DNA of 64,000 nucleotides from Pseudophaeobacter sp. Its GTDB lineage: Bacteria; Pseudomonadota; Alphaproteobacteria; Rhodobacterales; Rhodobacteraceae. This document shows positions 24,534 through 52,906 of this stretch, piece by piece; the stretch's first letter is position 1, and the number at the start of each line of letters is the position of its first letter. Location: assembly GCF_039971195.1 (NCBI RefSeq), contig NZ_JBDWPJ010000034.1, forward strand, positions 1,887 through 65,886. Reading direction: 5' to 3'. Under the pieces are notes generated by a model. That model saw nothing but the letters and a program-made list of their open reading frames with translations. It did not search any database and was not told where the DNA came from. The position numbers were made by a program, and so were the translations under genes.

Positions 24534-25097
24534 TCAGACCTGCATGATTTCTGCCTGCTTGTTCTCAAGCGCATCATCAACAGCCTTGATCATCGCATCG
24601 GTCAGATCCTGCACCTCGGATTCCCAGAATTTCTGGTCATCTTCGGACATGCCATCGGCCTTGGCCTTTTTGATCTGGTCCATGCCATCGCGGCGCACAT
24701 TGCGGATCGAGACGCGGCCATGTTCCGCATATTGCCCGGCAACCTTGCCCAGCTCGCGGCGGCGCTCTTCGTTCAGCTCAGGGATCGGCAACATGATAAT
24801 GGTGCCATTGAGCTGAGGGTTGATGCCAAGGCCGGAATTGCGGATGGCCTTTTCAACCGGTCCTACCAAGGCCTTATCCCATACATTGATGGTAACCATG
24901 CGCGGCTCTGGCACATTCACTGTGCCAACCTGGTTGATCGGCGTCATCGAGCCATAGGCCTCGACCATCACCGGTTCCAGCATCGAGCCAGAGGCCCGGC
25001 CGGTGCGCAAAGACGCAAATTCGGTTTTTAGATTCGCCATCGCGCCATCCATGCGGCGCTTCAGATCGTCGGTATCCAGTTCAAAATCGTCAGACAT
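24534..25097 (-). CDS. frr: Ribosome recycling factor
   Basis: [23 protein letters not shown]. Confidence 0.97.
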
Positions 25098-25365: not shown

Positions 25366-25399
25366 AGGTTAATCCACTCAAGTGACAGCGGTGTGACAG
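25366..25399 (-). promoter_or_regulatory. Pho-box (PhoB-type) promoter pointing toward frr
   Basis: Minus strand CTGTCAC-ACCG-CTGTCAC (25399-25382), then exactly 10 nt, then -10-like TAACCT (25371-25366). Confidence 0.62.
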
Positions 25400-25445: not shown

Positions 25446-26192
25446 TCAGCCTTCGACCTTGGTATAGGTGCCTTTACCAGCCAGAATTCCGCGGAACCCA
25501 CCGGGTTCATCCAGTGAGAATACGATGATCGGAAGGTTGTTATCGCGTGCCAGCGCAATGGCCGAGGCATCCATCACCCCAAGACGTTTGGCCAGAACAT
25601 CGTCAAAGCTGACATTGTCATAGCGTTTGGCATCGGCGTGTTTTTCCGGGTCCTTGTCGTAGACACCATCAACCTTGGTGCCCTTGAAGATCACTTCACA
25701 GCCCATTTCATTGGCTCGCAGGGTCGCGGCGGTATCTGTAGTGAAATAGGGGTTACCCGTGCCAGCGGCAAAGATGCAGACCCGCTTTTTCTCCAGGTGG
25801 CGTACCGCACGGCGGCGGATGTAGGGCTCGCAGACCTGATCCATGGGAATCGCCGAGATCACCCGGCAGAACACGCCGAGATCTTCAAGCGCGCTCTGCA
25901 TCGCCAGAGCGTTCATCACGGTCGCCAGCATGCCCATATAATCGGCAGTGGTGCGTTCCATTCCCTGGGCGGCCCCGGACAGGCCACGGAAGATATTGCC
26001 GCCACCAATCACCATGCAGATCTCAACACCCATGTCATGCACGGTTTTGACTTCGCGGGCGATGCGCTGAACGGTGGGCGGATTGAGGCCAAAGCCCTGA
26101 TCCCCCATCAAAGCCTCACCTGAAATTTTTAGCATGACACGGTTATAGGTAGCGTCTGGAACAGTCTCCAGCGTTTCAAGATCAAGGGGCAT
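25446..26192 (-). CDS. pyrH: UMP kinase
   Basis: [43 protein letters not shown]. Confidence 0.97.
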
Positions 26193-38433: not shown

Positions 38434-38568
38434 GGGTAGTAACTTCTAAATCGTAGATTTTTGAACGATAGCTATCTGTAAGGCAATGAGAACCTCATCA
38501 AAGATGTATAATTTTGAGGTTGATAAACCCACGTAATTCCGGAACCAATCAATTATGTAGATTTTTGA

Positions 38569-38745
38569 TTGGTTTCGGATCAGGTACTCATACAGCGCAT
38601 TTCCACTCTCATCAGTGGCGAACGGTTCAGCTACCTCGAAGGTGAAGACAATTTGCCAGACTATTGGTCAACGCTCTTTGTCACTGTTAAGCTGCGCTCC
38701 AAGCTCTCACAGAATACTATTTTGAGCGTACTTGGCGCTCTATGA
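38569..38745 (+). pseudogene. Putative N-terminal stub of a tyrosine recombinase/integrase
   Basis: TTG-start frame reads MVSDQVLIQRISTLISGERFSYLEGEDNLPDYWSTLFVTVKLRSKLSQNTILSVLGAL*; SGERF..L...P..W.TLF...LR....NTI resembles genomic-island integrase N-termini (recalled pattern, unverified). Confidence 0.45.
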
Positions 38746-38871
38746 ACACTTCACTCTCAAGAGTTCTGAGGCTGAAAAAAGTTTGAATGTCCGGAAATCG
38801 GATGATGTGATTTCTATGCGAATCCACCACCCACACAGTATCTCGGCTTTGGAAACCGTTAGCTCACATCA

Positions 38872-38916
38872 ACAAAAAAGCAGGATGAGTGTAGCAACTC
38901 GCTTCCTGTTTTTTGT
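38872..38916. terminator. Bidirectional terminator-like hairpin just outside the IS3 end
   Basis: acaaaaaagcagga ... tcctgttttttgt. Confidence 0.5.
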
Positions 38917-38963
38917 CGGAAAAACTGGACCTGTCGCGCATTTGTGCCGCCCCAGGTGCTCGT

Positions 38964-39546
38964 TTAGGCCACTTTCCGTTCAAAAGTGACGGGGCTTTTC
39001 CAGCCTAATGCTGAGTGGCCGCAGCGCGGATTGTAAAAGCCGTTTATGTATTCGAAGATTGCCATCTCAGCTTTGCGTCCTGTCTCCCAAGGATATCGCC
39101 GGATCAGCTCTGCCTTGATCGTCTTGAAGAAGGTCTCAACAGCCGCATTATCGTAGCAATTACCTTTGCCAGACATCGATACCTTGAACCCGTGCTGGCG
39201 CAGGATTTTCTGATAGTCATGAGAGCAGTATTGCGACCCGCGATCCGTGTGGTGGATGCAGCCTCTGGGCCGTGTTCTGAACGCAATGGCTAATTTCAAC
39301 GCCCTTATCGCCAGGTCCCGTTTCATCCGATTGCTGACCGCCCAGCCAATGACACGGCGTGAATGCAAGTCCCGGATCACAGCAAGATACAGCCATCCCT
39401 CACGGGTCCACACATAGGCGATGTCACCGGCCCATTTCTGGTTGGGTTCGGAAAGCACGCAGACCACATGCGCTGACGCCGACAACATTGCAAAGTCGGT
39501 TGGCCGGAAAGTCAGACCTGTGTTCTTCGGTAAACCCAAATCTCAT
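38964..39546 (-). pseudogene. IS3 OrfB (rve/DDE) with in-gene deletion and frameshift
   Basis: Frame starting at ATG 39546 (MRFGFTEEHRSDFPANRLCNVVGVS) jumps to PNQKWAGD in another frame; HTDRGSQY and CYDNAAVETFFKTIKAE retained. Confidence 0.85.
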
Positions 39547-39839
39547 TGCTTTAGGCCTGCGAAGAACTGGGTGGCCTTTTTTAAGATTTCCCTCTCCTCC
39601 TTGAAGAGCCGGATCTCACGTCGAAGTCGATCATTCTCTTCGGCGAGGCTCAGATCCTCTTTCGACACCACATCTGTGTCCTGATGGGCTGTGATCCATT
39701 TGTTCAAAGGCGACATTCCGACACCCAAATCATCAGCACCCTGCTTACGCGTAGGCCCGCTGGTCAGCGCGATACGCACCGTATCATGGCGGAATTTGTC
39801 CGTCCGTTTCTGTCCCACAGCCCGTCTCCTTTGCTGCAA
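39543..39839 (-). CDS. IS3 OrfA (HTH); true start probably downstream of 39839
   Basis: ADDLGVGMSPLNKW, ENDRLRREIRLFKEEREILKKATQFF. Confidence 0.85.
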   Translation of the reverse strand: MQQRRRAVGQKRTDKFRHDTVRIALTSGPTRKQGADDLGVGMSPLNKWITAHQDTDVVSKEDLSLAEENDRLRREIRLFKEEREILKKATQFFAGLKQ

Positions 39840-39877
39840 TAAATGCTATCAAAGGAGCGGCATCAAACCGCGACAGG

Positions 39878-40186
39878 TCAAGTTCTATGGATCTTCAGGT
39901 GGGTCGCTTCAATCATTAGTGTGCCTGTTGCATCGCCTTGAGCGGCCAGTACGGTCAGGATGCGTGCAAAGACGCCCATCTGGGACCATCGCGCCCATCG
40001 GTTGTAAAGCGTCTTATATGGCCCATAATCTGATGGAGCGTCTCGCCAGCGCAAGCCATTGCGAATGACATGGATGATGCCACTGAGAACCTTTCGGTCG
40101 CCAGCACGAGCAACACCATGTGGCTTTGGGAACATATGCTTGATGCGGTTGAGACGCTCTGGATTGAGCCAGAACAGATGCGACAT
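39878..40186 (-). pseudogene. IS5-family (IS427-like) transposase N-terminal fragment, cut at the IS3 end
   Basis: DRKVLSGIIHVIRNGLRWRDAPSDYGPYKTLYNRWARWS, LMIEATHLKIHRT; ends where the IS3 terminal repeat begins. Confidence 0.82.
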
Positions 40187-40391
40187 GGATAATCCTCCTG
40201 GCGCACACGAAACACGTTAAATGGGTGAATGGAATCGACTATCGCAAGGGCCGCTATACTTCGCGATCCAGTCATCCGACAAAAAGAGTCAGATGACGGC
40301 GCTGAGCCCAAAATTGACATTGCCTAGCATTCTTGAATAGCTGTTCGGACGCCATATTCTTTGCCCAAAATGCCTTTAGGAGTTCTCACTA

Positions 40392-41011
40392 ATGATTGAT
40401 CCGGTCGGTTAATGTCGGTTGGCATTGCATTTTTTGTTGTGGCTGCTTCTCCGGGCCCCGCAACTTTGGCAGCGGCGACTGTTTCCATGAGTTCTGGTAG
40501 AAGCAACGGGCTTCGTTTCGGTATGGGGTTGTCGGTCGGATTGGCTTTCTGGGGACTGGTTGCGGCCACAGGCGTGGGAGCCGTTTTACAGGCGTCGACA
40601 TATGCCCTAACGGCTCTCAAGGTCTTTGGCGGCGGATATCTCTTATGGCTTGCCTTCAAAACTGCCCGATCTGCCTGTGAAAAGACGCCACCCATGACGC
40701 CACAGGAGGCAAACGGGAGATGGTTCAAACGCGGGCTCATCCTAAATCTATCAAACCCTAAAGCTGTTGTCGCTTAGATGTCGACGCTTTCCTTGGGATT
40801 GGGGGATGGTGATGGGGTTTGGCAGGTGGCGCTGGCCACATCAATTTGCGTGGCACTGGGTTTCTTTATCTACTTTGTTTACGCAGTCACTTTTTCCTTG
40901 CCTAGAGCAATGAGTGGCTACGCGCGGGTCCGCAAATGGGTCGATGGCGCGGTCGCTGGTCTCTTCGCCATTGCGGGGGTGGGCCTTTTGCGATCAGCAT
41001 TCAGCAAGTAA
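40392..41011 (+). pseudogene. LysE/RhtB family exporter pseudogene
   Basis: SPGP, GGGYLLWLA and NPKAVVA motifs; in-frame TAG at 40775-40777 at the usual Trp position; apparent 1-bp frameshift between ATG 40392 and ATG 40412. Confidence 0.82.
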
Positions 41012-41293: not shown

Positions 41294-42214
41294 TTAGGTG
41301 GTGGAAACGATCCATTCTGGGCGGATGCCGCATTTGACGATATAGTGCGCGACATTGTGGCCGCGAAACAGCCCGTGATCGGTGATCAGGACCGTGCCAA
41401 TGCCCACAGCTGCCCCACCCAGCACATCCGTGTGCAGGGTATCACCCACCATGGCAATACGCCCTTCGTCGATTCCCTGCAGCCGGGCCAGCGCTGCCTC
41501 AAAGGCGTTGCAAAAGGGTTTTCCGTAAAACTGCGCCTCTCCGCCAGTACGCTCAGTGATCTGATGAGCAATCAAGCCTGGCTCAATCGACAGGCCGGTT
41601 TCGCGCGGTGCCACCAGGTCAGGATTGGCCACGATCAGTGGCCTTGGGTTCTCTTCGAGAGCGGAAGTTAGAGCCTCCGTGTCTGCATCACTCCAACGCG
41701 CCGACGACAACAGCAGAAAACCAGCAGCACTGCGCAGCAGTTCCATGTCATCAGCCAGCTGTTTGATCCGCGCTGTTTTGGGCGCATCGCTGAAATCATC
41801 GCCTTCAGCAGCGGCAGCGGCCCAGATCCCGCCATCCTGCAATTGCGGCAGATTTGCAAAGGCCACATCGCGGCTGGAAACCACCTCTTCGGCCTGAAAG
41901 TCAAAGCCAAGCCGGTGATACTTTGCCAGAATTTCAGCGCGGGTGTAGCTGGCGGCATTGGTCAGAACCACCAGCCGCTTGCCCGCAGCGCGAAGCATGG
42001 CCATACGCTCAACCGCGCCCTCAATAGCAGTCTCGCCGCGATTCAAGACGCCAAAGGCATCCAGAATATAGGCGTCATAGTCACCCATTGTATCGCCCAG
42101 ATCTTGCCCGGTCTGACTGCGGCTGGCAAAGACTGCGGGAGGCAGGACAGATCGCACAGATTCATATCTGTTAAAGGCCCAATTGGTATCGATCATCTTT
42201 CCACTTTCATGCAA
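41294..42214 (-). CDS. HAD-superfamily class IIA hydrolase with atypical motif I (DAFGVL)
   Basis: Motifs LDAFGVLN, LTNAAS, NPD, GKP, MVGDTLHTDVLGG. Confidence 0.88.
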   Translation of the reverse strand: MHESGKMIDTNWAFNRYESVRSVLPPAVFASRSQTGQDLGDTMGDYDAYILDAFGVLNRGETAIEGAVERMAMLRAAGKRLVVLTNAASYTRAEILAKYHRLGFDFQAEEVVSSRDVAFANLPQLQDGGIWAAAAAEGDDFSDAPKTARIKQLADDMELLRSAAGFLLLSSARWSDADTEALTSALEENPRPLIVANPDLVAPRETGLSIEPGLIAHQITERTGGEAQFYGKPFCNAFEAALARLQGIDEGRIAMVGDTLHTDVLGGAAVGIGTVLITDHGLFRGHNVAHYIVKCGIRPEWIVSTT

Positions 42215-42318
42215 ATGCCGACCCGTTGGGGCGGCGATCTGGTCTTTGTTTCACTTTCTCAAGACACCATTTCCCGGCGTGGCACAAGGCAGGGAGATCT
42301 TGAGGTCCTGGGTATTGG

Positions 42319-43131
42319 TTACAGGATCTTTTTGCGCAGGTAAGAAGACACAACCTCGCCAAAGACCACCAAAGCCAGGATGGTCAAAAGCACCATGGAG
42401 ACCTCAGGCCAGTTGAAGGTATCAATTGCGCCTTGCAGGATCATGCCAATACCGCCAGCACCAACCAACCCCAGCACGGTGGATTCCCGAAGGTTGATGT
42501 CCCAGCGCAGGATTGCCACGGCAAAGAAGGCCGGCATCACTTGTGGAACAATGGCATAGAGCACAATCTTGAAGCGGGAGGCCCCGCAGGCCTCCAGCGC
42601 CTCCACCGGCTTCTGGTCAATTTCCTCGATTGCCTCACCCAGCAACTTACCCAGAAACCCGATGGAACGGAACATGATCGCCACAATGCCCGCCACGATC
42701 CCAGGTCCAAAAATGGCCACGAACAGAAGCGCCCAGATGATGGTATTGACTGAGCGCGACGAGACCAGAATGAACCTCCCAATCCAGAGCGCGATACGGT
42801 TTGGCGTGGTGTTCTGCGCCGAGATATAGGCCACCGGCAGGGAGACAACCACGGCAATCATTGTGGCCAGGGTGGCGATATTCACCGTCTGCCAGATCGC
42901 CTCCAGAATTGAAGGTAGATTGCGCGGGTCCGGTGGCATCATCCGGGCAAACAGATCCCCCATCTGATTGGGCGCGTCCCAGACCCACTCCCAGATCACA
43001 TTGATGCTGCTCAGCGCCCAGGCCACCACCAAGAGGGTGAGCGCGAGACCACCATAGCGCATCAGGCGCTGGCGCAGGGTGAAACGGGACCAATGGTCCA
43101 GGGTTTGTTGCAGAGGTTGAGTGCTCATCAC
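42319..43131 (-). CDS. PhnE/PtxC-type ABC permease
   Basis: GFLGKLLGEAIEEID, RWDINLRESTVLGLVGAGGIG. Confidence 0.9.
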   Translation of the reverse strand: MMSTQPLQQTLDHWSRFTLRQRLMRYGGLALTLLVVAWALSSINVIWEWVWDAPNQMGDLFARMMPPDPRNLPSILEAIWQTVNIATLATMIAVVVSLPVAYISAQNTTPNRIALWIGRFILVSSRSVNTIIWALLFVAIFGPGIVAGIVAIMFRSIGFLGKLLGEAIEEIDQKPVEALEACGASRFKIVLYAIVPQVMPAFFAVAILRWDINLRESTVLGLVGAGGIGMILQGAIDTFNWPEVSMVLLTILALVVFGEVVSSYLRKKIL

Positions 43132-43918
43132 GCGATCCGCTTTCTGATAAATCCGCTCACCGCCTCAGAGATGAGGATCACCCCAACGATGACCATAGTG
43201 ATGGCGAGGGCAAAATCGTAGTCATAGCGGCCAAAGGCATTGGCCAGCGTCGCGCCAATGCCACCTGCCCCGACAATGCCCACCACAGCAGAGGCCCGCA
43301 GGTTGCTGTCCAACTGGTAGATCCCCAGTCCCACAAGACGGGGCATGATCTGCGGCAGCACCGCATAGGCCAATGTCACGATATAGCCCGCCCCAGCAGC
43401 GCGCATGGCTTCGACTTGGCCAAAATCGATTTCTTCGATCCGTTCCGCCAGCAGTTTGGCGACGAACCCAATGGAATAGACCACCAGGGTAAGCGCCCCG
43501 GCAAAGGGGCCAAAGCCTACTGCCTTCACAAAGATGATGGCGACAATCACCGGGTGGAAACTGCGCGCCACAATGATGATGCCACGGCCCAAAAGATAGA
43601 TCGGTTTGATGGCAATATTGCCTGCCGCCATAAAGGCCAAAGGCACCGACAATAGAATCCCCCCAACGGTGGCCAGGATGGCGATTTTCAGGCTTTCGAG
43701 GAAACCATCAATCATCAAGCCGGACCGCTCAAAACTGGGAGGAAAGGCGCCGCTGAAAATCCGCTGCGCGCGGCTCATCCCGTCCGACACCCGTTCCCAG
43801 TCAATCGGCAAGGTCGCCAGGGTGAAGATGAAATAGAGCGCAACTGCGCCGTAAAGACCTAACCGTATCAACGGGTTGGCGATGAAGGGCGGTTTACGCC
43901 AGCTGCCTTTTGCCTGAC

Positions 43919-43922
<4 letters not shown>
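43128..43922 (-). CDS. PhnE/PtxC-type ABC permease, second copy
   Basis: GFVAKLLAERIEEID, NLRASAVVGIVGAGGIG. Confidence 0.9.
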
Positions 43923-44692
<770 letters not shown>

Positions 44693-44836
44693 GGTGGTCT
44701 TTCGGAATTTGCGCGAGGGCAAAGCAACAGCAAGTTGCCGATACAGGTATAAGCACAGCAACAGGCGCAGGCCGGTACCGGGACGCAGAAGTACACGGCC
44801 GACGCTGTAGCCGACCGTGCTTTTGGCGGGGCTAGG

Positions 44837-45820
44837 TTACTTCCCGGCGAGGCCCTGAGGTGTGTATTCCACCCCGTTGGACTTCTGGATCTGGCGGATG
44901 ACCGCCCACTGATCCTGATAGGTGATCGGGATGAACTTGCTTACACCTGCGAATTCTTCACCTAGTTTTGTGCCTTCAAATTCAAAGGTAAAGAAGGCTT
45001 CCTTAATCTTGGCAGCGAGCTCAGGATCAAGGTTGTGGGCGACGTTGAACGAGGTCGTGGGGAAAGGATCACTCTCCCAGATCTTACGAACATCAGCCGT
45101 GTCATACAGCCCACGCTCGGCCATGCGATCCACCACTTCGGAGGCCACTGGCGCCGCGTCGTAATCGCCTGCAACCACGCCCAGCATCGACTGGTCATGG
45201 GAGCCGGAATAAACCACTTCGTAGTCCTTGTCGGGCTCAACACCCAGTCCGGGGAACAGTGCCCGTGGCGCCTGATTGCCAGAGTTGGAGGTTGGCGAGG
45301 TATGGGCCACACGGCGACCGGCCAAATCCCCAACGGATTTGATATCACTGTCGGCCTGGGTAAAGACCTGCAGCTTGTAGCCAAACTGGCCATCCTCGGC
45401 GCCCATGATGGCAAAGGGCACGGCTCCAGCCAAGTTGACCGCAAAGGGGGTTGGCCCGGTTGAGAAACCCGCCACATGCAGGCGGCCCGAACGCATGGCT
45501 TCAACTTCGGCTGAATTAGACTGCACGGCAAAGAACTGAACATCCTTGCCGGTCACACCTTCCAGGTGTTCGATGAAGGGAGCCCAGATATCGGCATAGA
45601 CCGCCGGGTCCTCAACCGGAGTATAGGCAAAGACCAGAGTGTCCGGATTGCTCAACTTGGCCGGATCAGTGGGGGTATCCGCCACCAGATCGCCATTGGC
45701 GTCACAATAAAGCACGTCCAGCGCGCCCCTCTCGGCACAGTCTTCGGCGGCAGAGGCTGCAAATGTGCTCGCAGTCAGAATGCCCAGTGCCCCAGCGGCA
45801 CGGGTGATGAATTTTGTCAT
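44837..45820 (-). CDS. PhnD/PtxB-type substrate-binding protein
   Basis: Signal peptide, HTSPTSNSG anion-binding loop, GSHD; N-terminal CxxRGxLDxxYCD extension. Confidence 0.88.
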   Translation of the reverse strand: MTKFITRAAGALGILTASTFAASAAEDCAERGALDVLYCDANGDLVADTPTDPAKLSNPDTLVFAYTPVEDPAVYADIWAPFIEHLEGVTGKDVQFFAVQSNSAEVEAMRSGRLHVAGFSTGPTPFAVNLAGAVPFAIMGAEDGQFGYKLQVFTQADSDIKSVGDLAGRRVAHTSPTSNSGNQAPRALFPGLGVEPDKDYEVVYSGSHDQSMLGVVAGDYDAAPVASEVVDRMAERGLYDTADVRKIWESDPFPTTSFNVAHNLDPELAAKIKEAFFTFEFEGTKLGEEFAGVSKFIPITYQDQWAVIRQIQKSNGVEYTPQGLAGK

Positions 45821-45923
45821 GTTGTCCTCCCTAAAAACGCCGACCTCCGGATCCCTAACCCACAGGTTCGACGCTGACCTCATCACGATAGGAGGTCGCT
45901 TTGCCGTGACGCGAGCCGCGTCG

Positions 45924-45962
45924 TGTTAACGAAACCGCCAAAACTGCGGTTTAATGTTAACA
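45924..45962. promoter_or_regulatory. Dyad-symmetric element in the divergent promoter region
   Basis: TGTTAAC-G-AAACCGC-caaaact-GCGGTTT-AAT-GTTAACA. Confidence 0.45.
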
Positions 45963-46079
45963 GTATTACAATCCCCGTCACATCCTCTTAAAATCTGGCA
46001 GGATTTGCTTCACTGAAGCAAAGGGGCTGATCAACACCGGCCCCCAATAGTACGCAGGATGTGGCAGGAGGAGGGTTGC

Positions 46080-46802
46080 ATGCAGGCAGGGAGGTCCGAG
46101 CCGCTCATCGCCATTGTGGACGATGACGCAGATGTACGTGACACGCTTTCTGCCTTGATGCGCGAAAGCGGTTTTGACGCGATCTGCTGTGCAGATATAG
46201 CTGCTTTCCTGGCGCTTGGAGATCCGCCTCAGGTGGATCTGGCGCTGATCGATCTGCGCCTGCGCGGTGAAAGCGGGCTGACGCTGGCCATCCACATACG
46301 GGAACGCTACGAAATCCCCATTGTCATGCTCACCGGTGTAGGGGATGAAATCGACAAGATCATCGGTCTGGAGACCGGGGCCGATGACTACATGATCAAG
46401 CCTTTCAACCCCCGTGAACTAGTAGCCCGGATACGCGCGGTGCTGCGCCGCTATGGCCATGGCACCGCCAAACCCAGCGCCTCCCCCGGCAAAGAAATCC
46501 ACTTTGGCCCCATGCGCATTGATGTACCGTCGCGCCGATTGCTGGATGCGGTCGGCGAAGAGATCCCGCTGACCAATGCCGAATACCGGTTGTTGGAATA
46601 CTTTGCCCGCAATCCTAACCGGGTCATCCCGCGCCCAGAACTGCTGGAAGAGCTGGGCTCGGATATGCAGCGCTATGTGGACCGGACCATTGATGTGCTG
46701 ATTTTGCGCCTGCGTCGCAAGATCGAAGCCACCCCGTCCAAACCAGTGCACCTGCAGACCCGCAGGGCGCAGGGCTATATCTTCCACCTGGCACCAAACT
46801 GA
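46080..46802 (+). CDS. OmpR-family response regulator
   Basis: IVDDD, LIDLRL, GADDYMIKPFNPREL, RTIDVLILRLRRKIE; GGAGGAGG RBS. Confidence 0.93.
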   Translation: MQAGRSEPLIAIVDDDADVRDTLSALMRESGFDAICCADIAAFLALGDPPQVDLALIDLRLRGESGLTLAIHIRERYEIPIVMLTGVGDEIDKIIGLETGADDYMIKPFNPRELVARIRAVLRRYGHGTAKPSASPGKEIHFGPMRIDVPSRRLLDAVGEEIPLTNAEYRLLEYFARNPNRVIPRPELLEELGSDMQRYVDRTIDVLILRLRRKIEATPSKPVHLQTRRAQGYIFHLAPN

Positions 46803-46807
46803 AGCCC

Positions 46808-49321
46808 ATGATCCCTGCCCTCCGCCACCTCAGCGTTCGATTTCGCCTCACTGCCGCCCTCGCCGTGCTCTTTTGCCTGATGTTGCTGGTCAGCCTCATC
46901 GGATTGCGGGTATTGAACCGGACGGAGTTCTGGATGAACACCCTGCATCAAGACACCCTGGCAGAGGTCTCTGACGCGCTGAACCTGTCCCGCCTCTCAG
47001 CCGATCTCGCCACCTCGGCCCCGTTTCTATATGCGCTGTTTCCCCCCTTTCAGCTGGAACAGGAATCTCAGGACGTGCTGGAGACCCTCCGAAAGATAGA
47101 ATCCCAGGCCCAAGGAGAGCCCGCCCTGGATCTGCCACTGGCCAGGCTGCGGCTGGCGATTGACGATCTGACCACGGCCCTCGTACCACAGACCGCCCGC
47201 AAGGCCGATCTCGTGGCAATTGATCGTGGTCTTGAGCGGTTGAACCAACGGGCCCGGCGGCAGGCAGGCGATACCTCTCGCCCGCTGGCGGAGCGCGAGA
47301 TCTGGACTGGGCTGCAACAGCTGACCGCCAGCGCCATAGGTGCCGTGCGGGCCAATGCGCTGATTGAACTGGGGGAATTCTCGCGTCGATATGCCCAGGC
47401 CAGAGCGGCCCTTCAGCCGAAACTCTTGCCTCCGCTACGCGCCACCTTTGACGAGATCGACAGGGTACTAAGCCGCAGCGAAGGCCTGTTTGTGCTCAAA
47501 CACAAGGAAATTGCCGCCCAGCTGGATGCGGAAAACGCCCTGTATCGCATCCGGCAAGAGGCCAGCCGGATCACCCGTTTTGCCGAAGACAAAGTGGCCC
47601 AAGCCGAGGCTCGGCTGTCGCAGGCGAGGGCCGAGACATCAAACAATCTCAGCATCGCCAAAAACTGGTTTCTGGCCCTCACCCTGATGAGCCTCTTGGT
47701 GGCGATCAGCTCTTCGCAGTATGTCTCGCGCTATGTGGCCGGCAATCTGCAACGCATCGCTGAAGCCATGCGCCGATTGGCGGCCGGCAACCATCGCGCT
47801 GATCTGCCCAAGGGGCCAAAATCCACGGATGAAATTGGCCAGCTGTTCGCCGCCTTTGCGGTGTTTCGTGAAAACGCCCGCAAACTGGACCGGCGCACCA
47901 GCCAGATCCGACACCAGAACGCGCTCTTTTCACGGGTGTTTCGCAATATCACCGATGGAGTGGCGATCACTTCTGCCCAGGGTGAGATCGAGGCCGAAAA
48001 CGACAATCTACGCCAGCTGCTCCGGCTTCCCCCCGCTCCAAAGGGACACCAGGTCCCAATCCCGATGCTGATGGCGCAGTCCACTTTCTCCCCCCGGGCC
48101 AGCGCCGACGAGCCGGGCGGTTTTGAAGAGTTTACCGACCCCTCCGGCAATGTGCTGGAGCTGCGCCATTCGCCCTTGCCGGATGGCGGCGCTGTCTGGC
48201 TGCTGTCGGAAACCACGGAACGCAAAAAGGTCGAAGAGCGATTGGAAGAAATCCGCAGGGTGGAGACCCTGGGCAAGGTTTCCGGTGAAATCGCCCATGA
48301 TTTTGGCAATATCCTCTCCAGTATATCTGGCAATCTTCACCTGCTCGAAAGCGCTGAACCTGCGCAGTCACAACATTTTCGCGCCCGCATCCGCTCTGCG
48401 GTTGACTTGGGTGTTTCCCTGACAGAACGGCTCTTGGCCTTTGCGCGCAAACAGCATCTGGAACCGCAGGTTACTGATATCGGCCAATTGATCGACGGAA
48501 TGGTCGACCTGCTGGAAATCGCCCTGCCCGGGGAGGTCACCCTCCAGTATCAAGCACCAGAGCAGCCGGTTCTGGCGCGGGTGGATCCCGGACAGCTGGA
48601 AAGCGCGGTGCTCAACCTCTGTGTCAATGCCGGGCAGTCGATTGAGGGCGCTGGTACTGTGACCCTGACGGTACGAGATGATCATGGCGCGCGACTTACC
48701 ATTCAAGACAGCGGCGCGGGCATGAGTCCGGAAGTTTTGCGCCGCGCCACCGAGCCCTTCTTCACCAATCGCGCTGATGGCAGTGGCACCGGACTTGGGC
48801 TCTCCATGGTAGATGGGTTTGTTCATCAGTCCGGTGGCCAGTTGTTGCTCAACTCGCGGGTGGTACCGCCAAACCAAGGGACAGCCGTGACTTTGCAGTT
48901 TCCTGCCCTCAGAACAGAGCATGACGGTGCCGCGCTCGTCTCTAGCCCCGGATCCGCACTGGTGGTGGATGACGATCCAGCCTCCCTCGCCTCTGCCTCG
49001 AAAGCTCTCGAACAGCTGGGATATGCGGTGACACAGGCAACAAGCTTCCATCAGGGGCTGGACCAGCTTGAAAACCTGTCCAGGCCGGATCTCATCCTAA
49101 GCGATCTCAATCTGGACAGCGGTGCCTCTGGCTGGGAGTTGTTGATACACGGCCATGACCTGCACCCAGCCTGTCAGCTGGCGCTGATGTCCACGCGGGA
49201 AAACCCAATCGTGCCCAGCGAGTTAAGCGCGATATCTAACCTCAGCATCCTCACCAAACCCTTAGGTGAGGATGAGGTGAAACAGCTCCTCCTCACCGCA
49301 AATCAAAATGGTAAGCCTTAG
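46808..49321 (+). CDS. Hybrid sensor histidine kinase (TM, helical periplasmic domain, TM, HAMP, PAS-like, HisKA, HATPase, REC)
   Basis: AHDFGNIL H-box, LNLCVNA N-box, DSGAGM, GTGLGLS, C-terminal VVDDD receiver. Confidence 0.92.
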   Translation: MIPALRHLSVRFRLTAALAVLFCLMLLVSLIGLRVLNRTEFWMNTLHQDTLAEVSDALNLSRLSADLATSAPFLYALFPPFQLEQESQDVLETLRKIESQAQGEPALDLPLARLRLAIDDLTTALVPQTARKADLVAIDRGLERLNQRARRQAGDTSRPLAEREIWTGLQQLTASAIGAVRANALIELGEFSRRYAQARAALQPKLLPPLRATFDEIDRVLSRSEGLFVLKHKEIAAQLDAENALYRIRQEASRITRFAEDKVAQAEARLSQARAETSNNLSIAKNWFLALTLMSLLVAISSSQYVSRYVAGNLQRIAEAMRRLAAGNHRADLPKGPKSTDEIGQLFAAFAVFRENARKLDRRTSQIRHQNALFSRVFRNITDGVAITSAQGEIEAENDNLRQLLRLPPAPKGHQVPIPMLMAQSTFSPRASADEPGGFEEFTDPSGNVLELRHSPLPDGGAVWLLSETTERKKVEERLEEIRRVETLGKVSGEIAHDFGNILSSISGNLHLLESAEPAQSQHFRARIRSAVDLGVSLTERLLAFARKQHLEPQVTDIGQLIDGMVDLLEIALPGEVTLQYQAPEQPVLARVDPGQLESAVLNLCVNAGQSIEGAGTVTLTVRDDHGARLTIQDSGAGMSPEVLRRATEPFFTNRADGSGTGLGLSMVDGFVHQSGGQLLLNSRVVPPNQGTAVTLQFPALRTEHDGAALVSSPGSALVVDDDPASLASASKALEQLGYAVTQATSFHQGLDQLENLSRPDLILSDLNLDSGASGWELLIHGHDLHPACQLALMSTRENPIVPSELSAISNLSILTKPLGEDEVKQLLLTANQNGKP

Positions 49322-49327
49322 CAGGGG

Positions 49328-50449
49328 TCAGGCCTGGGCGCAGTCTTTCAGCGCATCCTTCAGCACCGACAAAACCACTTCTTTGGGAACATCTGCGGTG
49401 ACAAACGCCTCCCCGATACCGCGCGCCAGAATGAACTTCAGCTGCCCATCCACCACTTTTTTATCCTGCCCCATCAGCCCCAAAAGCGCGTCAGCATTCG
49501 GGAGCGCGCCCTCAATATCACAGAGGTCGGTCTTCATGCCCATCTCTTTGAGATGCGCCCGCACCCGGCTTGGGTCTTCCTGACTGCATAGCCCTAGCCG
49601 GGACGACAGCTCAAAAGCCAGCGCGCAGCCAATGGCGACACCCTCGCCGTGCAGCAGCCGGTCAGAATAGCCCGTGGCCGCTTCCAAGGCGTGGCAAAAG
49701 GTATGACCCAGGTTGAGCAGTGCCCGGTCGCCTTGTTCGGTCTCATCGCGTTCGACGATATCCGCCTTCATCTGCACTGAATGCGCTACGGCCTCAACCC
49801 GTGCAGCCATATCGCCTTCTGCCAATTTTGGCCCCATCTCTTCGAGCCAGGCAAAGAACGCCGCGTCCCCCAACAGCCCATATTTGACCACTTCGCCATA
49901 ACCTGCGAGAAAATCCCGCGCTGTGAGGGTGCCAAGAATTTCAGAATCCGCCAACACCAGGGTGGGCTGGTGAAAGGCGCCGATCAGGTTCTTGCCCTGA
50001 GGCGCATTGATGCCGGTCTTACCCCCAACCGAGCTATCCACCTGCGCCAACAGGGAGGTGGGGATTTGAATGAACCGCACGCCCCGTCGCAGGACCGAGG
50101 CAGCAAACCCGGCCAGATCGCCAATCACACCGCCGCCAAAAGCGACAACCACATCGTTGCGCTCGACCTTTTGCTCCAGGAGCCATTCCACCGCGCGGCT
50201 GAACTGCGGCCAAGCCTTGGTGGATTCCCCGGCGGGCAGGGCCAGCGAGACCATTTCGATCCCAGCTTTGGCCAACCCACTGCGCAGGCTCTCCAGATGT
50301 AACGCTGCAACGTTTTCGTCCGTCAGCACCGCAACGCGTGGCCGGTTTAGGAAGGGTGCGATCCGCGCGCCCACCTCCTGCAACAGCCCTGGCCCAATCA
50401 CCACATCATATTCGCGCCCCTCCAGGGGGACATGCACGATACGTTCCAT
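49328..50449 (-). CDS. aroB: 3-dehydroquinate synthase
   Basis: GGGVIGDLAG, PTSLLAQVDSSVGGKTG, GKNLIGAFHQP, LNLGHT, LLHGE. Confidence 0.97.
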   Translation of the reverse strand: MERIVHVPLEGREYDVVIGPGLLQEVGARIAPFLNRPRVAVLTDENVAALHLESLRSGLAKAGIEMVSLALPAGESTKAWPQFSRAVEWLLEQKVERNDVVVAFGGGVIGDLAGFAASVLRRGVRFIQIPTSLLAQVDSSVGGKTGINAPQGKNLIGAFHQPTLVLADSEILGTLTARDFLAGYGEVVKYGLLGDAAFFAWLEEMGPKLAEGDMAARVEAVAHSVQMKADIVERDETEQGDRALLNLGHTFCHALEAATGYSDRLLHGEGVAIGCALAFELSSRLGLCSQEDPSRVRAHLKEMGMKTDLCDIEGALPNADALLGLMGQDKKVVDGQLKFILARGIGEAFVTADVPKEVVLSVLKDALKDCAQA

Positions 50450-51120: not shown

Positions 51121-51270
51121 ATGGGGCGACTGATCAAATACCTTCTCATTTTTGCGGTTCTAGCAGCGCTGGGGCTGGTGGCCTATGCCTACCTAGGCCC
51201 CTGGTTTGGAGCGGATTTTAGCGTTCCGTTGCAGGAACAACGCATACCGGTTGTGCTAGATGCAGATTAA
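51121..51270 (+). CDS. 49-aa single-pass membrane protein MGRLIKYLLIFAVLAALGLVAYAYLGPWFGADFSVPLQEQRIPVVLDAD
   Basis: ATG at 51121 inside the 50878 frame; positive N-terminus plus hydrophobic helix; overlaps the next start. Confidence 0.7.
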   Translation: MGRLIKYLLIFAVLAALGLVAYAYLGPWFGADFSVPLQEQRIPVVLDAD

Positions 51271-52906
51271 ACAGCGCCAAAATCCAGCATTAAGGGTCTT
51301 TACTTTTGCGTTTTATATCAGCACCTTAAGCGCGACAATCGCTCTGGCCCAGGCACCTCTCACGGTGATCGATTGGCTTGGGCAGCCTGACGATACCGCG
51401 CCTTTGCCCAGCACGGTCCTGCTGGAGCCGCCCGTCACCGGCAGTGCCAGCCAGCCGCAAGTTACCGTGACACCACTGCAGGCGCTTTTGCCCCCCATTG
51501 GGCTGGTTGCCCCTTCAGCGACAGGCCTGCCGGTCGATCTGTGGCGCGGCAGTGACCCCGGCACGATTGCCGATCTTATTCTCTCGGTCTCGGTGCAGGG
51601 CAATCCGGCAATGCAGTCGCTTTTGTTCACGCTATTGCTGTCAGAAAGCCGCCCGCTCAAAGCCGAAGGCGATGCGGTTTTGCTGGCGCGGCTGGATCGC
51701 CTGATTACCCTGGGCGCGACGGACCCGGCGCAGGCCCTGGTAGAGCAGGCTAGCCCCACCGCTACGCCGGCGCGGTTTCGACGCTGGTTTTTCACCGCTC
51801 TGCTGAGCGGCGACGAAGATCGTGTTTGCGCTGCCCTGGTGGCCGCGCCCTATCTGGCGCCTGACTACCGCGCCCGCATTTTCTGCGCCGCGCGACGTGG
51901 CGATTGGCCCACGGCCGCCCTGATGTTGGAATCCGCCCATGCGTTGGAGCTTTTGCCTCAGGATCAGTTGAACCTGTTGGATCGTTTTCTGAACCCGGAC
52001 ATCTTTGAGCTCGCTCCGCCCCTGCCCTTGCCGGACAGGCCTGACCCGCTGACCTTCCGTCTTTATGAGGCCATTGGCGAACGTCTGCCCACAGCCCCCC
52101 TGCCGCGGGCTTTTTCTGCTGCCGACCTGCGCGATATTGCTGGGTGGAAAGCCCAGCTTGAGGCTTCCGAACGCCTGACCCGCGCCGGGGCGCTTAACCC
52201 CAATCAGCTGTTGGGGCTCTACACGGATCGCAGCCCTGCTGCCTCTGGCGGTGTTTGGGACCGGGTGTCAGCGCTGCAGAATTTTGAGGCCGCGCTTAAC
52301 AGCGGCAATAGCGATGCGGTTGCCAATGCACTGCCCGCCGTCTGGCAAGCGATGCAGCAGGCCGGCCTAGAAGTGGGCTTTGCCGATCTGTTCTCCACCC
52401 AGCTAGCGCGGTTCAGTTTCACCGGTGAAGCCGCTGAACTGGCCTGGCGTATTCGCCTCCTGGCCCCAACCTATGAGATCGCCTCTCATAGCCTGCCCAG
52501 TGACACCCCAGAAAATACATTCCTTGCAGCTCTGGCCCAGGGCACACCGGGCAATCCGGGCAGCAATATCTCTTTGAATTCCGATGACGCAGCCACGACT
52601 GTCCAATCCGAAAGAGAGACCAGCGCAACCCCTTCGGCCCGCAGCCAGCAGCGCGGTCCCTCCCCTTTGGCCGGATCAATCCTCAAGGGGTTTGAGGAAG
52701 AGGCAGAGGTGCCACCAAAAATCCGGGCTCTGCTGGACAATGGTCAGTTGGGCGAGGCTATTTTGCGCACCATGGACCTGTTTGCCCGCGGGGCGCAGGG
52801 CAACCTTGGCGACCTGAGCAAGGCGCTTGCGGCTCTGCGGGCGGTTGGGCTGGAAGACACCGCGCGCCGCGCCACCCTGCAGTTGATGCTACTGGGGCGG
52901 GGCTGA
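51260..52906 (+). CDS. Hypothetical exported, largely helical protein
   Basis: Signal peptide ending ALAQA; Ala/Leu-rich helical pattern; abuts xerD. Confidence 0.75.
   Translation: MQIKQRQNPALRVFTFAFYISTLSATIALAQAPLTVIDWLGQPDDTAPLPSTVLLEPPVTGSASQPQVTVTPLQALLPPIGLVAPSATGLPVDLWRGSDPGTIADLILSVSVQGNPAMQSLLFTLLLSESRPLKAEGDAVLLARLDRLITLGATDPAQALVEQASPTATPARFRRWFFTALLSGDEDRVCAALVAAPYLAPDYRARIFCAARRGDWPTAALMLESAHALELLPQDQLNLLDRFLNPDIFELAPPLPLPDRPDPLTFRLYEAIGERLPTAPLPRAFSAADLRDIAGWKAQLEASERLTRAGALNPNQLLGLYTDRSPAASGGVWDRVSALQNFEAALNSGNSDAVANALPAVWQAMQQAGLEVGFADLFSTQLARFSFTGEAAELAWRIRLLAPTYEIASHSLPSDTPENTFLAALAQGTPGNPGSNISLNSDDAATTVQSERETSATPSARSQQRGPSPLAGSILKGFEEEAEVPPKIRALLDNGQLGEAILRTMDLFARGAQGNLGDLSKALAALRAVGLEDTARRATLQLMLLGRG

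Follow-up and report, generated by a model that had tools for sequence, protein, structure and literature searches.

A probable glycerol phosphate uptake locus of Pseudophaeobacter sp. with a linked HAD-family hydrolase and a putative dedicated two-component switch

The closest described system to the locus considered here is GpxBACD, an importer of glycerol-1-phosphate (G1P) as well as glycerol-3-phosphate (G3P) (Wang et al., PNAS Dec 2025, PMC12718374). In Phaeobacter sp. MED193, GpxB binds G1P with a Kd of 2.5 uM and G3P with a Kd of 1.0 uM, and the joint loss of gpxB and ugpB abolishes growth on either compound (PMC12718374). The first of these ligands, sn-glycerol-1-phosphate, is the backbone of archaeal lipids. 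The same paper does not name or discuss a HAD gene, regulator, kinase or operator, and says that regulation remains for study (PMC12718374). As far as the literature searched shows, the parts played by the HAD enzyme and the two-component system considered below are still undescribed.

The window analysed, a stretch of 64,000 nucleotides from Pseudophaeobacter sp., contains the seven genes of the module, and these were verified on the strands given by the first-pass annotation, with an operon divergent from an OmpR regulator and a hybrid kinase. On the minus strand lie the gpxB binding protein gene (44837-45820; 327 aa with signal peptide; PF12974/TIGR01098; PhnT family, TC 3.A.1.9), a gpxA-type, PhnC-like ABC ATPase (43919-44761; TIGR02315, 313.9 bits), two PhnE-like permeases (permease 1, 43128-43922, TIGR01097, 261.5 bits; permease 2, 42319-43131, TIGR01097, 302 bits) and a HAD-IIA hydrolase (41294-42196; 300 aa; TIGR01459, 109.5 bits with the cut-off at 103.75). 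The stop of permease 1 falls inside the gene that follows it, as would fit translational coupling, and no terminator-like site was found between permease 2 and the HAD gene. On the plus strand are an OmpR/PhoB-family response regulator (46080-46802; 240 aa; Response_reg and Trans_reg_C domains) and a hybrid histidine kinase (46808-49321; 837 aa; assigned by domain search). Two starts were corrected, that of gpxB to the ATG at 45820 behind GGGAGGA, the GTG at 45886 being rejected, and that of the HAD gene to the ATG at 42196, giving 300 aa, which matches the length of its homologues; the regulator most likely starts at the ATG at 46080, behind GGAGGAGGG.

The binding protein shares 91% identity with MED193 GpxB and 51% (E 9e-95) with the crystallised GpxB of Marinobacter (PDB 9LF9/9LFB). 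All nine of the GpxB ligand residues are present (T121, G122, Y148, S178, N179, S180, H208, R232 and T256), each of them kept in 75-78 of 78 homologues, and the ATPase is 92% identical to its MED193 orthologue, MED193_19454. Judged by these sequence relationships, binding protein, ATPase and permeases very probably make up GpxBACD, a high-affinity ABC importer for sn-G1P and sn-G3P. The first-pass annotation had called the module undescribed, a description that no longer fits the transporter core, published in December 2025 (PMC12718374), whereas its expectation that the cargo would be a specific phosphate ester rather than a phosphonate was in essence correct. No evidence for the binding protein points to the phosphoramidates or activated phosphonates also suggested as cargo; only for the HAD enzyme do such compounds retain a minor likelihood.

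In this regard, a plain phosphonate or phosphite importer of the PhnCDE/PtxABC type, with its cargo processed by the C-P lyase encoded elsewhere in the genome and with the HAD gene and two-component system as bystanders, is a most improbable reading of the locus. Such a reading could draw on the automatic annotation of the binding protein (phosphate/phosphite/phosphonate-binding), on the PhnC and PhnE equivalog models, above cut-off for the ATPase and permeases, and on PhnJ (C-P lyase), encoded on another contig of the same genome. The binding protein, however, reaches only 141 bits with the PhnD equivalog model, the cut-off of which is 261, and places Arg232 and Thr256 where PhnD has its Glu/Asp pair for 2-AEP; GpxB is also without the aromatic cap found in PtxB and HtxB (PMC12718374). 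Moreover, its 91% identity is to a protein with measured G1P and G3P binding, and a separate, canonical phnCDEE set, the binding protein of which is only 26% identical to that of the module, sits on another contig. Within the module itself no C-P lyase, phnWX, phnYZ or ptxD genes were found, as had been claimed from the first. The linkage of the HAD gene to gpx and ugp operons, which is far beyond chance, argues in the same direction.

This linkage was surveyed in an even sample of one genome per genus (151 genera, 48 gpxB loci) and in a close set of 78 related loci. The HAD gene lies directly 3' of permease 2 in 36 of the 78 close loci, and in the even sample 27 of the 48 loci have an orthologue behind the permeases; over the 151 genomes the co-occurrence with gpx has an odds ratio of 12 (Fisher p 2e-10), such that the conserved association anticipated between hydrolase and transporter is significant. 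Linkage to either gpx or ugp operons is seen in 30 of 53 loci carrying a HAD orthologue. Where the gene is absent from the gpx locus, an orthologue terminates lysR-ugpBAEC-GDPD-HAD operons in six of ten genomes, and the UgpB of such operons scores 817 bits against the G1P/G3P-binding UgpB structure 9lff; runs of gpxBACD-HAD-ugpB occur in 3-4 genera. Some gpx loci without the HAD gene adjoin a phosphatase of another type (His_Phos_1, Cof-type HAD or PAP2). The enzyme is not obligatory, since about half of the gpx loci are without it and, among 30 genomes checked that have a HAD-less gpx locus, 17 contain no homologue (E <= 1e-20), 10 contain an orthologue at 42-78% identity and three only a distant paralogue at 34-35%.

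Structurally, the HAD enzyme, which is TIGR01459-like, has the NagD-type fold of small-molecule phosphatases (AF2 model, pLDDT 96), with 2hx1 as best structural match and with Rv1692 and PGP, both glycerol-phosphate phosphatases, among the other matches. The nucleophile Asp and motifs II-IV are kept, but motif I reads D-A-F-G-V, in which the Asp+2 general acid is missing, and the pattern D-A-[F/Y/W]-G-V is shared by all 43 HAD orthologues, by a paralogue in the same genome and by 2hx1. Because the whole TIGR01459-like clade is without Asp+2, the enzyme would be expected to hydrolyse alkyl phosphates, glycerol phosphate among them, only slowly if no residue of the cap takes its place; E205 and D193, both invariant, would be candidates. 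No member of the clade with a published activity was found in the literature searched; JGI automatic names for some homologues include 'glycerol-1-phosphatase' and 'glycerol 3-phosphatase-2'. The proposal that the enzyme is a cytoplasmic glycerol-phosphate phosphatase feeding GlpK and GlpD stands at about an even chance.

It is possible, although distinctly less likely, that the enzyme belongs to glycerol phosphate metabolism without being a simple phosphatase, acting either as a C1/C3 phosphomutase (G1P to G3P) or as a hydrolase of some activated by-product that carries a good leaving group (an acyl-phosphate, P-N compound or pyrophosphate-type compound). The latter is the chemistry that a HAD enzyme lacking Asp+2 would be expected to perform, and the fold is also near that of LHPP (TM 0.72/0.80), a NagD-family enzyme that itself has no Asp+2 and acts on P-N and pyrophosphate bonds; moreover, gpx/ugp linkage fixes the pathway of the enzyme and leaves its chemistry free. 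A mutase too, however, would need a general acid/base, and beta-phosphoglucomutase keeps Asp+2, while an activated phosphoryl compound is not an obvious product of G1P/G3P import. At other gpx loci this position is occupied by unrelated true phosphatases, so that the need in common appears instead to be phosphate release. GlpK is available to re-phosphorylate the glycerol.

Turning to the two-component system, the regulator and kinase are not PhoBR, because both fall under all curated equivalog cut-offs; the regulator lies under every NCBIfam one (PhoB model, 164.9 against 296.2). It keeps the acidic pocket and the Asp that accepts the phosphoryl group, along with the conserved Lys of KPF, and its identity across the 56 loci carrying the two-component system is 68-92%. 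The kinase runs in the order TM1, a periplasmic sensor of ~250 aa, TM2, HAMP, PAS, HisKA, HATPase and C-terminal receiver, with no HPt domain found, and its kinase and receiver part resembles VirA-like kinases (NF010411, E 2.9e-50). An AF2 model of residues 1-310 (pLDDT 87.5) is all-helical, with the sensor as a double four-helix bundle, for which Foldseek returned PilJ, the TorS sensor (3o1h, TM 0.54/0.61) and McpS at weak E-values (~1e-3 to 1e-2), helical bundles being folds that match easily.

Between the two transcription units lies a conserved candidate operator (45925-45969, minus strand; phylogenetic footprint, 25 loci), which on the gpxB strand reads GTAATACT-GTTAAC (45969-45956), with GTTAAC repeated 31 nt downstream (45930-45925). 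It is upstream of both genes, at 105-149 nt from the gpxB ATG and ~110-155 nt from that of the regulator. Of the 56 loci that have the two-component system, 52 contain the composite motif, with a constant box spacing of 31-32 nt, as against none of the 22 that lack the system; the exact form of the motif occurs once in the 4.17-Mb genome. Columns of the intergenic alignment conserved as CTCGC (-35 region) and CTA(TCG) (-10 region) probably represent the gpxB core promoter (45886-45916, minus strand), a placement that would put the proximal GTTAAC box near -48. No Pho-box-like site was found in the module promoter at <= 4 mismatches, nor, at <= 3, in the sequence upstream of gpxB from 76 related loci, in line with the original reading of the promoter. 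The site at 25382 which that reading had offered as a clear Pho box does exist (CTGTCAC-N4-CTGTCAC, 25382-25399, between the housekeeping genes pyrH and frr), but is a doubtful yardstick since the window holds five matches at <= 3 mismatches against 4.6 expected by chance.

Further evidence comes from the proteomics of MED193, an orthologous strain and not the source organism, in a medium of only partly defined phosphate status: the transporter proteins MED193_19449, MED193_19454 and MED193_19459, together with MED193_19469 and MED193_19439, are up on G1P and on G3P when compared with glycerol (PMC12718374, Table S1). MED193_19469 is the orthologue of the HAD enzyme (72% identical) and MED193_19439 that of the kinase. 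The log2FC values are 7.1 for the ATPase MED193_19454 on G1P, 3.8 and 3.7 for the HAD protein on G1P and G3P, respectively, and 1.9-2.7 for the kinase on G1P/G3P (PMC12718374, Table S1). The suggestion that the pathway is substrate-induced and usable for carbon is thereby upheld, the MED193 orthologue being induced during growth on the substrate as sole carbon source (PMC12718374).

It is rather improbable that the two-component system is a mere neighbour which answers to something other than glycerol phosphate, for instance to phosphate status, to stress of the envelope or, via PAS, to redox. It is true that the orthologous pair is absent from most gpx-bearing genera (present in 2 of 46 in the even sample), and that paralogous regulator/kinase pairs adjoin other importers; the anticipated linkage to the transporter holds only in a single gpx subclade (56 of the 78 close loci). 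Those 56 loci, however, span at least 18 named genera and at least two families, and all retain the divergent arrangement. The sensor domain is conserved to the same degree as the kinase core (40-76% identity), and the candidate operator, unique in the genome, co-occurs strictly with the pair; that no Pho box was found, and that the kinase itself is induced by G1P and G3P in MED193, count likewise.

The module is patchily distributed, as was surmised: gpx was found in 46 of the 151 genera sampled, some copies being on plasmids, and the flanks differ in every relative. Here aroB/aroK flank the kinase, whereas the 8-kb flanks of all 78 related loci are without these genes. The supposed integration scar, adjoining the HAD end, proved to be a decayed mobile-element patch (38434-41010) which after ssb contains IS3 orfB/orfA fragments (38964-39839), an IS5-family fragment (39878-40186) and, broken by an in-frame stop, the gene of a LysE exporter (40412-41010).

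Overall, the module probably serves to take up and use glycerol phosphates, and the OmpR regulator and hybrid kinase are likely, with good confidence, to form a dedicated, Pho-independent and substrate-responsive switch. The kinase would sense external glycerol phosphate via its periplasmic double four-helix bundle, either directly (as McpS) or through docked, ligand-loaded GpxB (as TorS/TorT and VirA/ChvE), and would phosphorylate the regulator, which on binding the GTAAYAYT-GTTAAC ... GTTAAC candidate operator would activate gpxBACD-HAD and, probably, its own operon. The co-transcribed HAD enzyme may then dephosphorylate imported G1P (and G3P) in the cytoplasm to phosphate and achiral glycerol, from which GlpK and GlpD (both encoded in the genome; GlpK, 674.7 bits) would give G3P and then DHAP. 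The glycerol route would 'reset' the handedness of G1P; no dehydrogenase for G1P is evident in the genome, the only candidates found being aroB and two Fe-ADH-type genes of ~420 aa.

How, then, does the module compare with known systems? GpxBACD of MED193 and of Marinobacter sp. DSM 11874 is the orthologous operon, with the same order of binding protein, ATPase and two permeases and no difference in the transporter core; the MED193 locus likewise has the HAD gene and two-component system. UgpBAEC-UgpQ of E. coli, which takes up glycerol-3-phosphate and glycerophosphodiesters, and UgpB of MED193 (PDB 9LFF) handle the same substrates (G3P, plus G1P for MED193 UgpB), and the ugp operon of several roseobacters has the HAD orthologue as its last gene. 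The ugp binding protein, however, belongs to family CUT1, unrelated to the PhnT-family GpxB, and E. coli ugp is PhoB-controlled, whereas in the module no Pho box was found and the two-component system is probably a dedicated one. The importers of phosphonates and reduced phosphorus, PhnCDE/C-P lyase and PtxABC/HtxBCDE, share TC 3.A.1.9 with the module, the binding pocket of which is adapted to a diol tail, with Arg/Thr where those importers have Glu/Asp or an aromatic cap, and the operon of which has no catabolic C-P enzyme. Rv1692 of M. tuberculosis (PDB 4I9F/4I9G) and mammalian PGP/G3PP (7PO7) have the same NagD-type fold with C2 cap (TM 0.64-0.68) at 22-25% identity, the HAD enzyme here belonging to the uncharacterised TIGR01459/2hx1 clade with an aromatic residue for Asp+2. 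TorS/TorT/TorR has a similar all-helical periplasmic double-bundle sensor, although the present kinase, unlike TorS, is without HPt, and VirA/ChvE/VirG similarly pairs a kinase bearing a C-terminal receiver with an OmpR-family partner; neither sensor is related to that of the module at the sequence level. By analogy with these two systems, GpxB, encoded next door, might hypothetically deliver the signal by docking to the kinase. UhpABC and PgtABC control organophosphate transporters of another class (MFS antiporters) and belong to other sensor and regulator families (NarL or NtrC type), but in both an external phosphate ester, and not phosphate starvation, induces its own importer via a dedicated two-component system.

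The seven genes are arranged in two divergent units, as the first-pass annotation had them, with some of their starts corrected here. On the reverse strand, a PF12974/TIGR01098 binding protein (44837-45820, with its start corrected to the ATG at 45820 behind GGGAGGA) is followed by a PhnC-type ATPase (43919-44761), two PhnE-type permeases (43128-43922 and, as permease 2, 42319-43131) and a HAD-IIA hydrolase (41294-42196), for which correction of the start to the ATG at 42196 gives a protein of 300 amino acids that matches the length of its homologues. No convincing terminator is found in the 122-nt spacer that separates permease 2 from the HAD gene. On the forward strand lie an OmpR-family regulator (46080-46802, start corrected, probably to the ATG at 46080 behind GGAGGAGGG) and a hybrid histidine kinase of 837 amino acids (46808-49321). 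The module is flanked on one side by ssb and a decayed mobile-element patch (38434-41010) made up of IS3 orfB/orfA fragments, an IS5-family (DUF4096) fragment and a broken LysE exporter gene, and on the other by aroB-aroK. The patch begins with an AT-richer stretch after the ssb stop codon, and the LysE gene has an in-frame stop at ~40776. On the far side, between aroK and xerD, an ORF of 548 amino acids (51260-52906) has no Pfam match at E ≤ 0.001. DHQ synthase and sn-glycerol-1-phosphate (G1P) dehydrogenase are related superfamily members. The aroB-like gene (49328-50449) was considered as a G1P dehydrogenase and rejected, as it scores as a true AroB, is paired with aroK and does not occur in the flanks of any of the 78 related loci.

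The binding protein matches the Marinobacter GpxB structures 9LF9/9LFB with an E-value of 9e-95 (51% identity to 9lf9) and is 91% identical to GpxB of Phaeobacter sp. MED193 (locus L012). GpxBACD was named as an ABC importer of G1P and sn-glycerol-3-phosphate (G3P) following its discovery by proteomics of G1P-grown MED193 (Wang et al., PNAS, December 2025, PMC12718374), in the study that also reported these structures. All seven residues that bind the phosphate head of the ligand (Thr111, Gly112, Tyr138, Ser168, Asn169, Ser170 and His199 in 9LF9 numbering) are kept in the window protein, where they are T121, G122, Y148, S178, N179, S180 and H208, and these are identical in 78/78 homologues. 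The diol-tail ligands Arg223 and Thr247 (9LF9 numbering) correspond to R232 and T256, with Arg in 78/78 homologues and Thr in 75/78, the remaining three having Ser. In other words, all nine ligand-contacting residues are identical in the window protein and are kept in 75-78 of the 78 homologues. It is at the positions of this Arg and Thr that the 2-AEP binder PhnD has Glu177 and Asp205. The binding protein reaches 141.2 bits against the PhnD equivalog TIGR03431, below the cut-off of 261.1, and neither phnGHIJKLM nor any other C-P-cleaving enzyme is linked to the operon within the window. The genome has its own PhnJ on contig C69 and a canonical phnCDEE on contig C10, the binding protein of which is 26% identical to the one described here. 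Taken together, the structural match, the identity to MED193 GpxB, the ligand residues, the sub-PhnD score and the separate phnCDEE and PhnJ make the importer a GpxBACD orthologue and not a phosphonate system. Micromolar binding of G1P and G3P, and induction by these substrates, have been measured in orthologues. GpxB has a Kd of 2.5 µM for G1P and 1.0 µM for G3P, and a gpxB ugpB double mutant does not grow on either compound (PMC12718374). The earlier proposals of a non-phosphonate pathway and of a specific phosphate ester as substrate are thus both upheld, the ester being G1P/G3P from the orthology with GpxB. The description of the module as undescribed is out of date for the transporter, the identity of which has been in print since the publication of GpxBACD in December 2025.

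The gpxB promoter of the window has no Pho box (two 7-bp direct repeats with an 11-bp period, E. coli consensus) at ≤4 mismatches, and none is found at ≤3 mismatches to the same consensus upstream in 76 related loci. As a yardstick for this absence, the first-pass annotation had taken a clear Pho box at 25382, which proves an unconvincing control. This direct repeat, CTGTCAC-N4-CTGTCAC (25382-25399, reverse strand), has two mismatches to the E. coli Pho box and is flanked by pyrH (25446-26192) and frr (24534-25097), with the housekeeping cluster frr-uppS-cdsA-dxr-rseP downstream of it. Moreover, the window holds five matches at ≤3 mismatches where 4.6 are expected by chance.

That the system is induced by its substrate, and that the compound is used as a carbon source, had been anticipated and accords with the data on the MED193 orthologue (PMC12718374). 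In Table S1 of that study, which is proteomics of the orthologous strain and not of the window's organism, the 'uncharacterized protein MED193_19469' has a log2FC of 3.84 on G1P and 3.68 on G3P, and the 'histidine kinase MED193_19439' of 1.92 and 2.74, respectively; in the glycerol control the transporter makes up 0.00% of the proteome (PMC12718374). Exact-sequence look-up gives MED193_19469 as the HAD gene of L012, which is 72% identical to the window HAD, and the accession of the L012 hybrid kinase is, by tag arithmetic, the one expected for MED193_19439. In a close orthologue, therefore, both accessory parts are induced together with the transporter. In its main text the paper is silent on hydrolases, phosphatases, kinases and regulators, and its conclusion defers regulation to further study (PMC12718374). 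In the literature searched, the MED193 locus tags returned nothing relevant outside the PNAS paper, such that the HAD and two-component roles appear as accessory functions of the gpx locus that are not yet in print.

The association of the HAD gene with glycerol-phosphate import extends well beyond this genome. In 36 of the 78 loci retrieved with the binding protein, permease 2 is immediately followed by an orthologue on its strand, and gpx loci both with and without the two-component system have one. Among 151 genomes sampled evenly, with each genus of the family represented once, 46 have gpxB, 51 have the HAD orthologue and 33 have both (odds ratio 12, Fisher p 2e-10), with the HAD gene at a fixed 2.45-2.64 kb after gpxB in 27 of 48 gpxB loci. 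Most telling is its placement in genomes with a HAD-less gpx locus, where in six of ten cases a lysR-ugpBAEC-GDPD-HAD operon ends with an orthologue (45-86% identical). UgpB from these operons reaches 817 bits against 9LFF, the UgpB of MED193, which binds G1P and G3P (PMC12718374). Counted over the even sample, 30 of the 53 HAD orthologues adjoin gpx, ugp or both. These two are, to our knowledge, the only known G1P/G3P importers. The order gpxBACD-HAD-ugpB is found in three or four further genera. Same-strand runs of this kind, in which the HAD gene sits between both importers, are seen at G072:C1:2128694-2134381, G111:C3:212486-218251 and G169:C4:207383-213114 (genome, contig and positions). 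A second operon resembling gpx, with a HAD gene of its own, is present in one Roseibium genome, and some HAD-less gpx loci have a phosphatase of a different type (histidine phosphatase, Cof-type HAD or PAP2) beside gpxB. In loci without the regulator-kinase pair, the gene divergently upstream of gpxB encodes a histidine phosphatase in Halomonas (L059:7126-7803), a Cof-type HAD in Nitratireductor (L057:6905-7768), a PAP2 phosphatase in Roseovarius (L070:6987-7757) and a DeoR/GlpR-like regulator in Modicisalibacter (L061:6877-7719). Conservation of both accessory parts with the transporter, on which the earlier proposal depended, is only partial, as the HAD gene is strongly, though not universally, linked and the regulator-kinase pair is linked in one subclade.

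At 109.5 bits, just over the cut-off of 103.75, the HAD protein is a borderline member of the TIGR01459 HAD-IIA hypothetical equivalog. Its AF2 model (pLDDT 96) has the C2-cap NagD fold, with 2hx1 as the best match (TM 0.81/0.85), the other top matches being PLP phosphatase, the glycerol-phosphate phosphatase Rv1692, NagD, LHPP and mouse PGP. HAD motifs I-IV are present as the nucleophile D46, T79-N80, K226 and G251-D252...D257, and are invariant in 30 orthologues. The general acid/base at Asp+2 is absent, this position being Phe in the window HAD and in 2hx1, and one of F, Y and W throughout the orthologues. A TIGR01459-like paralogue in the same genome (contig C80:1090-1833, 26% identical) has the motif I D-L-W-G-C, with Trp at Asp+2. 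The whole TIGR01459-like clade is therefore without this residue. Residues of the kinds found in polyol-binding sites (Trp, Arg, Glu, Asp and Asn) are invariant in the cap, and one of them could, we infer, act as a substitute acid. GlpK and GlpD are both encoded in the genome, in which no G1P dehydrogenase is evident. The most economical reading, and one to which we would give an even chance, is that the HAD acts in the cytoplasm as a glycerol-phosphate phosphatase. Its products would be phosphate and achiral glycerol, the latter to be converted to G3P by GlpK, such that G1P would gain entry to bacterial metabolism. A different chemistry in the same pathway, either a 1,3-phosphomutase or the hydrolysis of an activated phosphoryl compound, is rather unlikely. 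In the literature searched, no activity is published for the TIGR01459-like clade, and nothing relevant was found on bacterial G1P phosphatases. If a phosphatase or other activity were shown for this HAD, it would be the first for the TIGR01459/2hx1 clade and would reveal HAD catalysis without the canonical Asp+2.

The patchy distribution that had been suspected is borne out, since the aroB/aroK flank is found in 0/78 relatives and copies of the module occur on plasmids (L021/L022 and L054). Loci L021 and L022 are two HAD-less copies on one 242-kb plasmid of Arenibacterium sp. LLYu02, in which the kinase is perhaps disrupted, as the matches span just 60-72% of the query. A roseobacter-type gpx locus with pair and HAD and a 91% identical binding protein also stands in a record under the name of the actinobacterium Nocardioides marinus (L011); this assembly is probably mislabelled or contaminated. 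In each of two genera, a gpxB copy is interrupted by internal stops and looks like a pseudogene, at G043:C6:50436-51344 (two TGA and one TAA) and at G102:C39:1201-2160 (one TGA).

Of the 78 close loci, 56 have the divergent regulator-kinase pair, and these are spread over at least 18 named roseobacter genera together with Roseibium/Labrenzia and Lentilitoribacter; in the even genus sample, an orthologous kinase is restricted to this genome and a single further one. The pair marks one gpx subclade. Alignment of the intergenic regions reveals a footprint, TGTAAYAYT-GTTAACA, with a second GTTAACA 31-32 nt downstream, in otherwise diverged sequence, followed after the second box by conserved CTCGC and CTA, which would fit a -35/-10 pair. 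The composite motif is in 52/56 loci with the pair and 0/22 without. Within the genome the exact motif occurs once (45956-45969, with the second GTTAAC box at 45925-45930). The single one-mismatch match elsewhere falls inside a xanthine-dehydrogenase-type coding region on contig C123, and a spaced variant is on C49, such that the genome scan for the operator gives no evidence of a larger regulon. An inverted repeat between the GTTAAC boxes, AAACCGC-N7-GCGGTTT, was rejected as part of the site, as it is not kept in relatives. The pair is probably a dedicated, Pho-independent activator that would answer external glycerol phosphate and probably also regulate its own expression.

The periplasmic domain of the kinase is conserved as well as its catalytic core, at 40-76% identity, and is modelled as a double four-helix bundle (pLDDT 87.5). 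The nearest solved folds by Foldseek are PilJ, TorS and McpS, with weak E-values that give the fold class only and are not taken as evidence of homology to TorS. The ligand would either bind the bundle directly or be delivered by GpxB, in the way of TorT and ChvE. Paralogous pairs with unchanged domain order (kinase 38-41% and regulator 59-66% identical) are found in other roseobacter genera (L111-L115), divergent from PhnS2/PhnU2/PhnT2-like ABC importers that score under the 2-AEP equivalog cut-offs, which suggests a sensor family, each member with its own organophosphorus importer.

A more tentative proposal brings the two accessory parts together, in that the HAD may supply the missing intracellular G1P step while the hybrid kinase senses external glycerol phosphate through docked, ligand-loaded GpxB, in the manner of TorS/TorT. 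The HAD would then be either a G1P-capable phosphatase, resetting chirality via glycerol and GlpK, or a 1,3-phosphomutase yielding G3P directly, and the kinase would belong to a wider roseobacter two-component family, each member with an organophosphorus ABC importer. If this were true, two undescribed functions would complete the newly found bacterial recycling route for archaeal lipid backbones. We know of no earlier report of a sensor of external glycerol phosphate; the kinase would be the first. The matter has some reach, as some 5-10% of cells in the surface ocean are reported to have GpxB-type importers (PMC12718374), and thousands of roseobacter entries under the label 'phosphate/phosphite/phosphonate ABC transporter substrate-binding protein' are glycerol-phosphate binders, the scoring of which as phosphonate transporters would mislead marine surveys. 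Two questions are left by PMC12718374, namely the regulation of gpx and the fate of G1P inside a bacterium with G3P-adapted enzymes. For each, the locus and its relatives provide a testable candidate: a two-component system with a defined operator, and a co-induced HAD that travels with both G1P/G3P importers.

With respect to known signalling systems, the regulator has a receiver and a winged-helix output domain (Pfam) and retains the acidic pocket, the phospho-acceptor Asp and the KPF Lys, and the kinase has HisKA, HATPase and receiver domains (Pfam); neither reaches any curated equivalog cut-off, those for PhoB and PhoR included. The kinase has no Hpt match and ends 10 residues past its receiver domain. 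It differs in this from the TorS-type phosphorelay kinases, being without their C-terminal HPt, and is instead built as VirA is, with a terminal receiver and no HPt.
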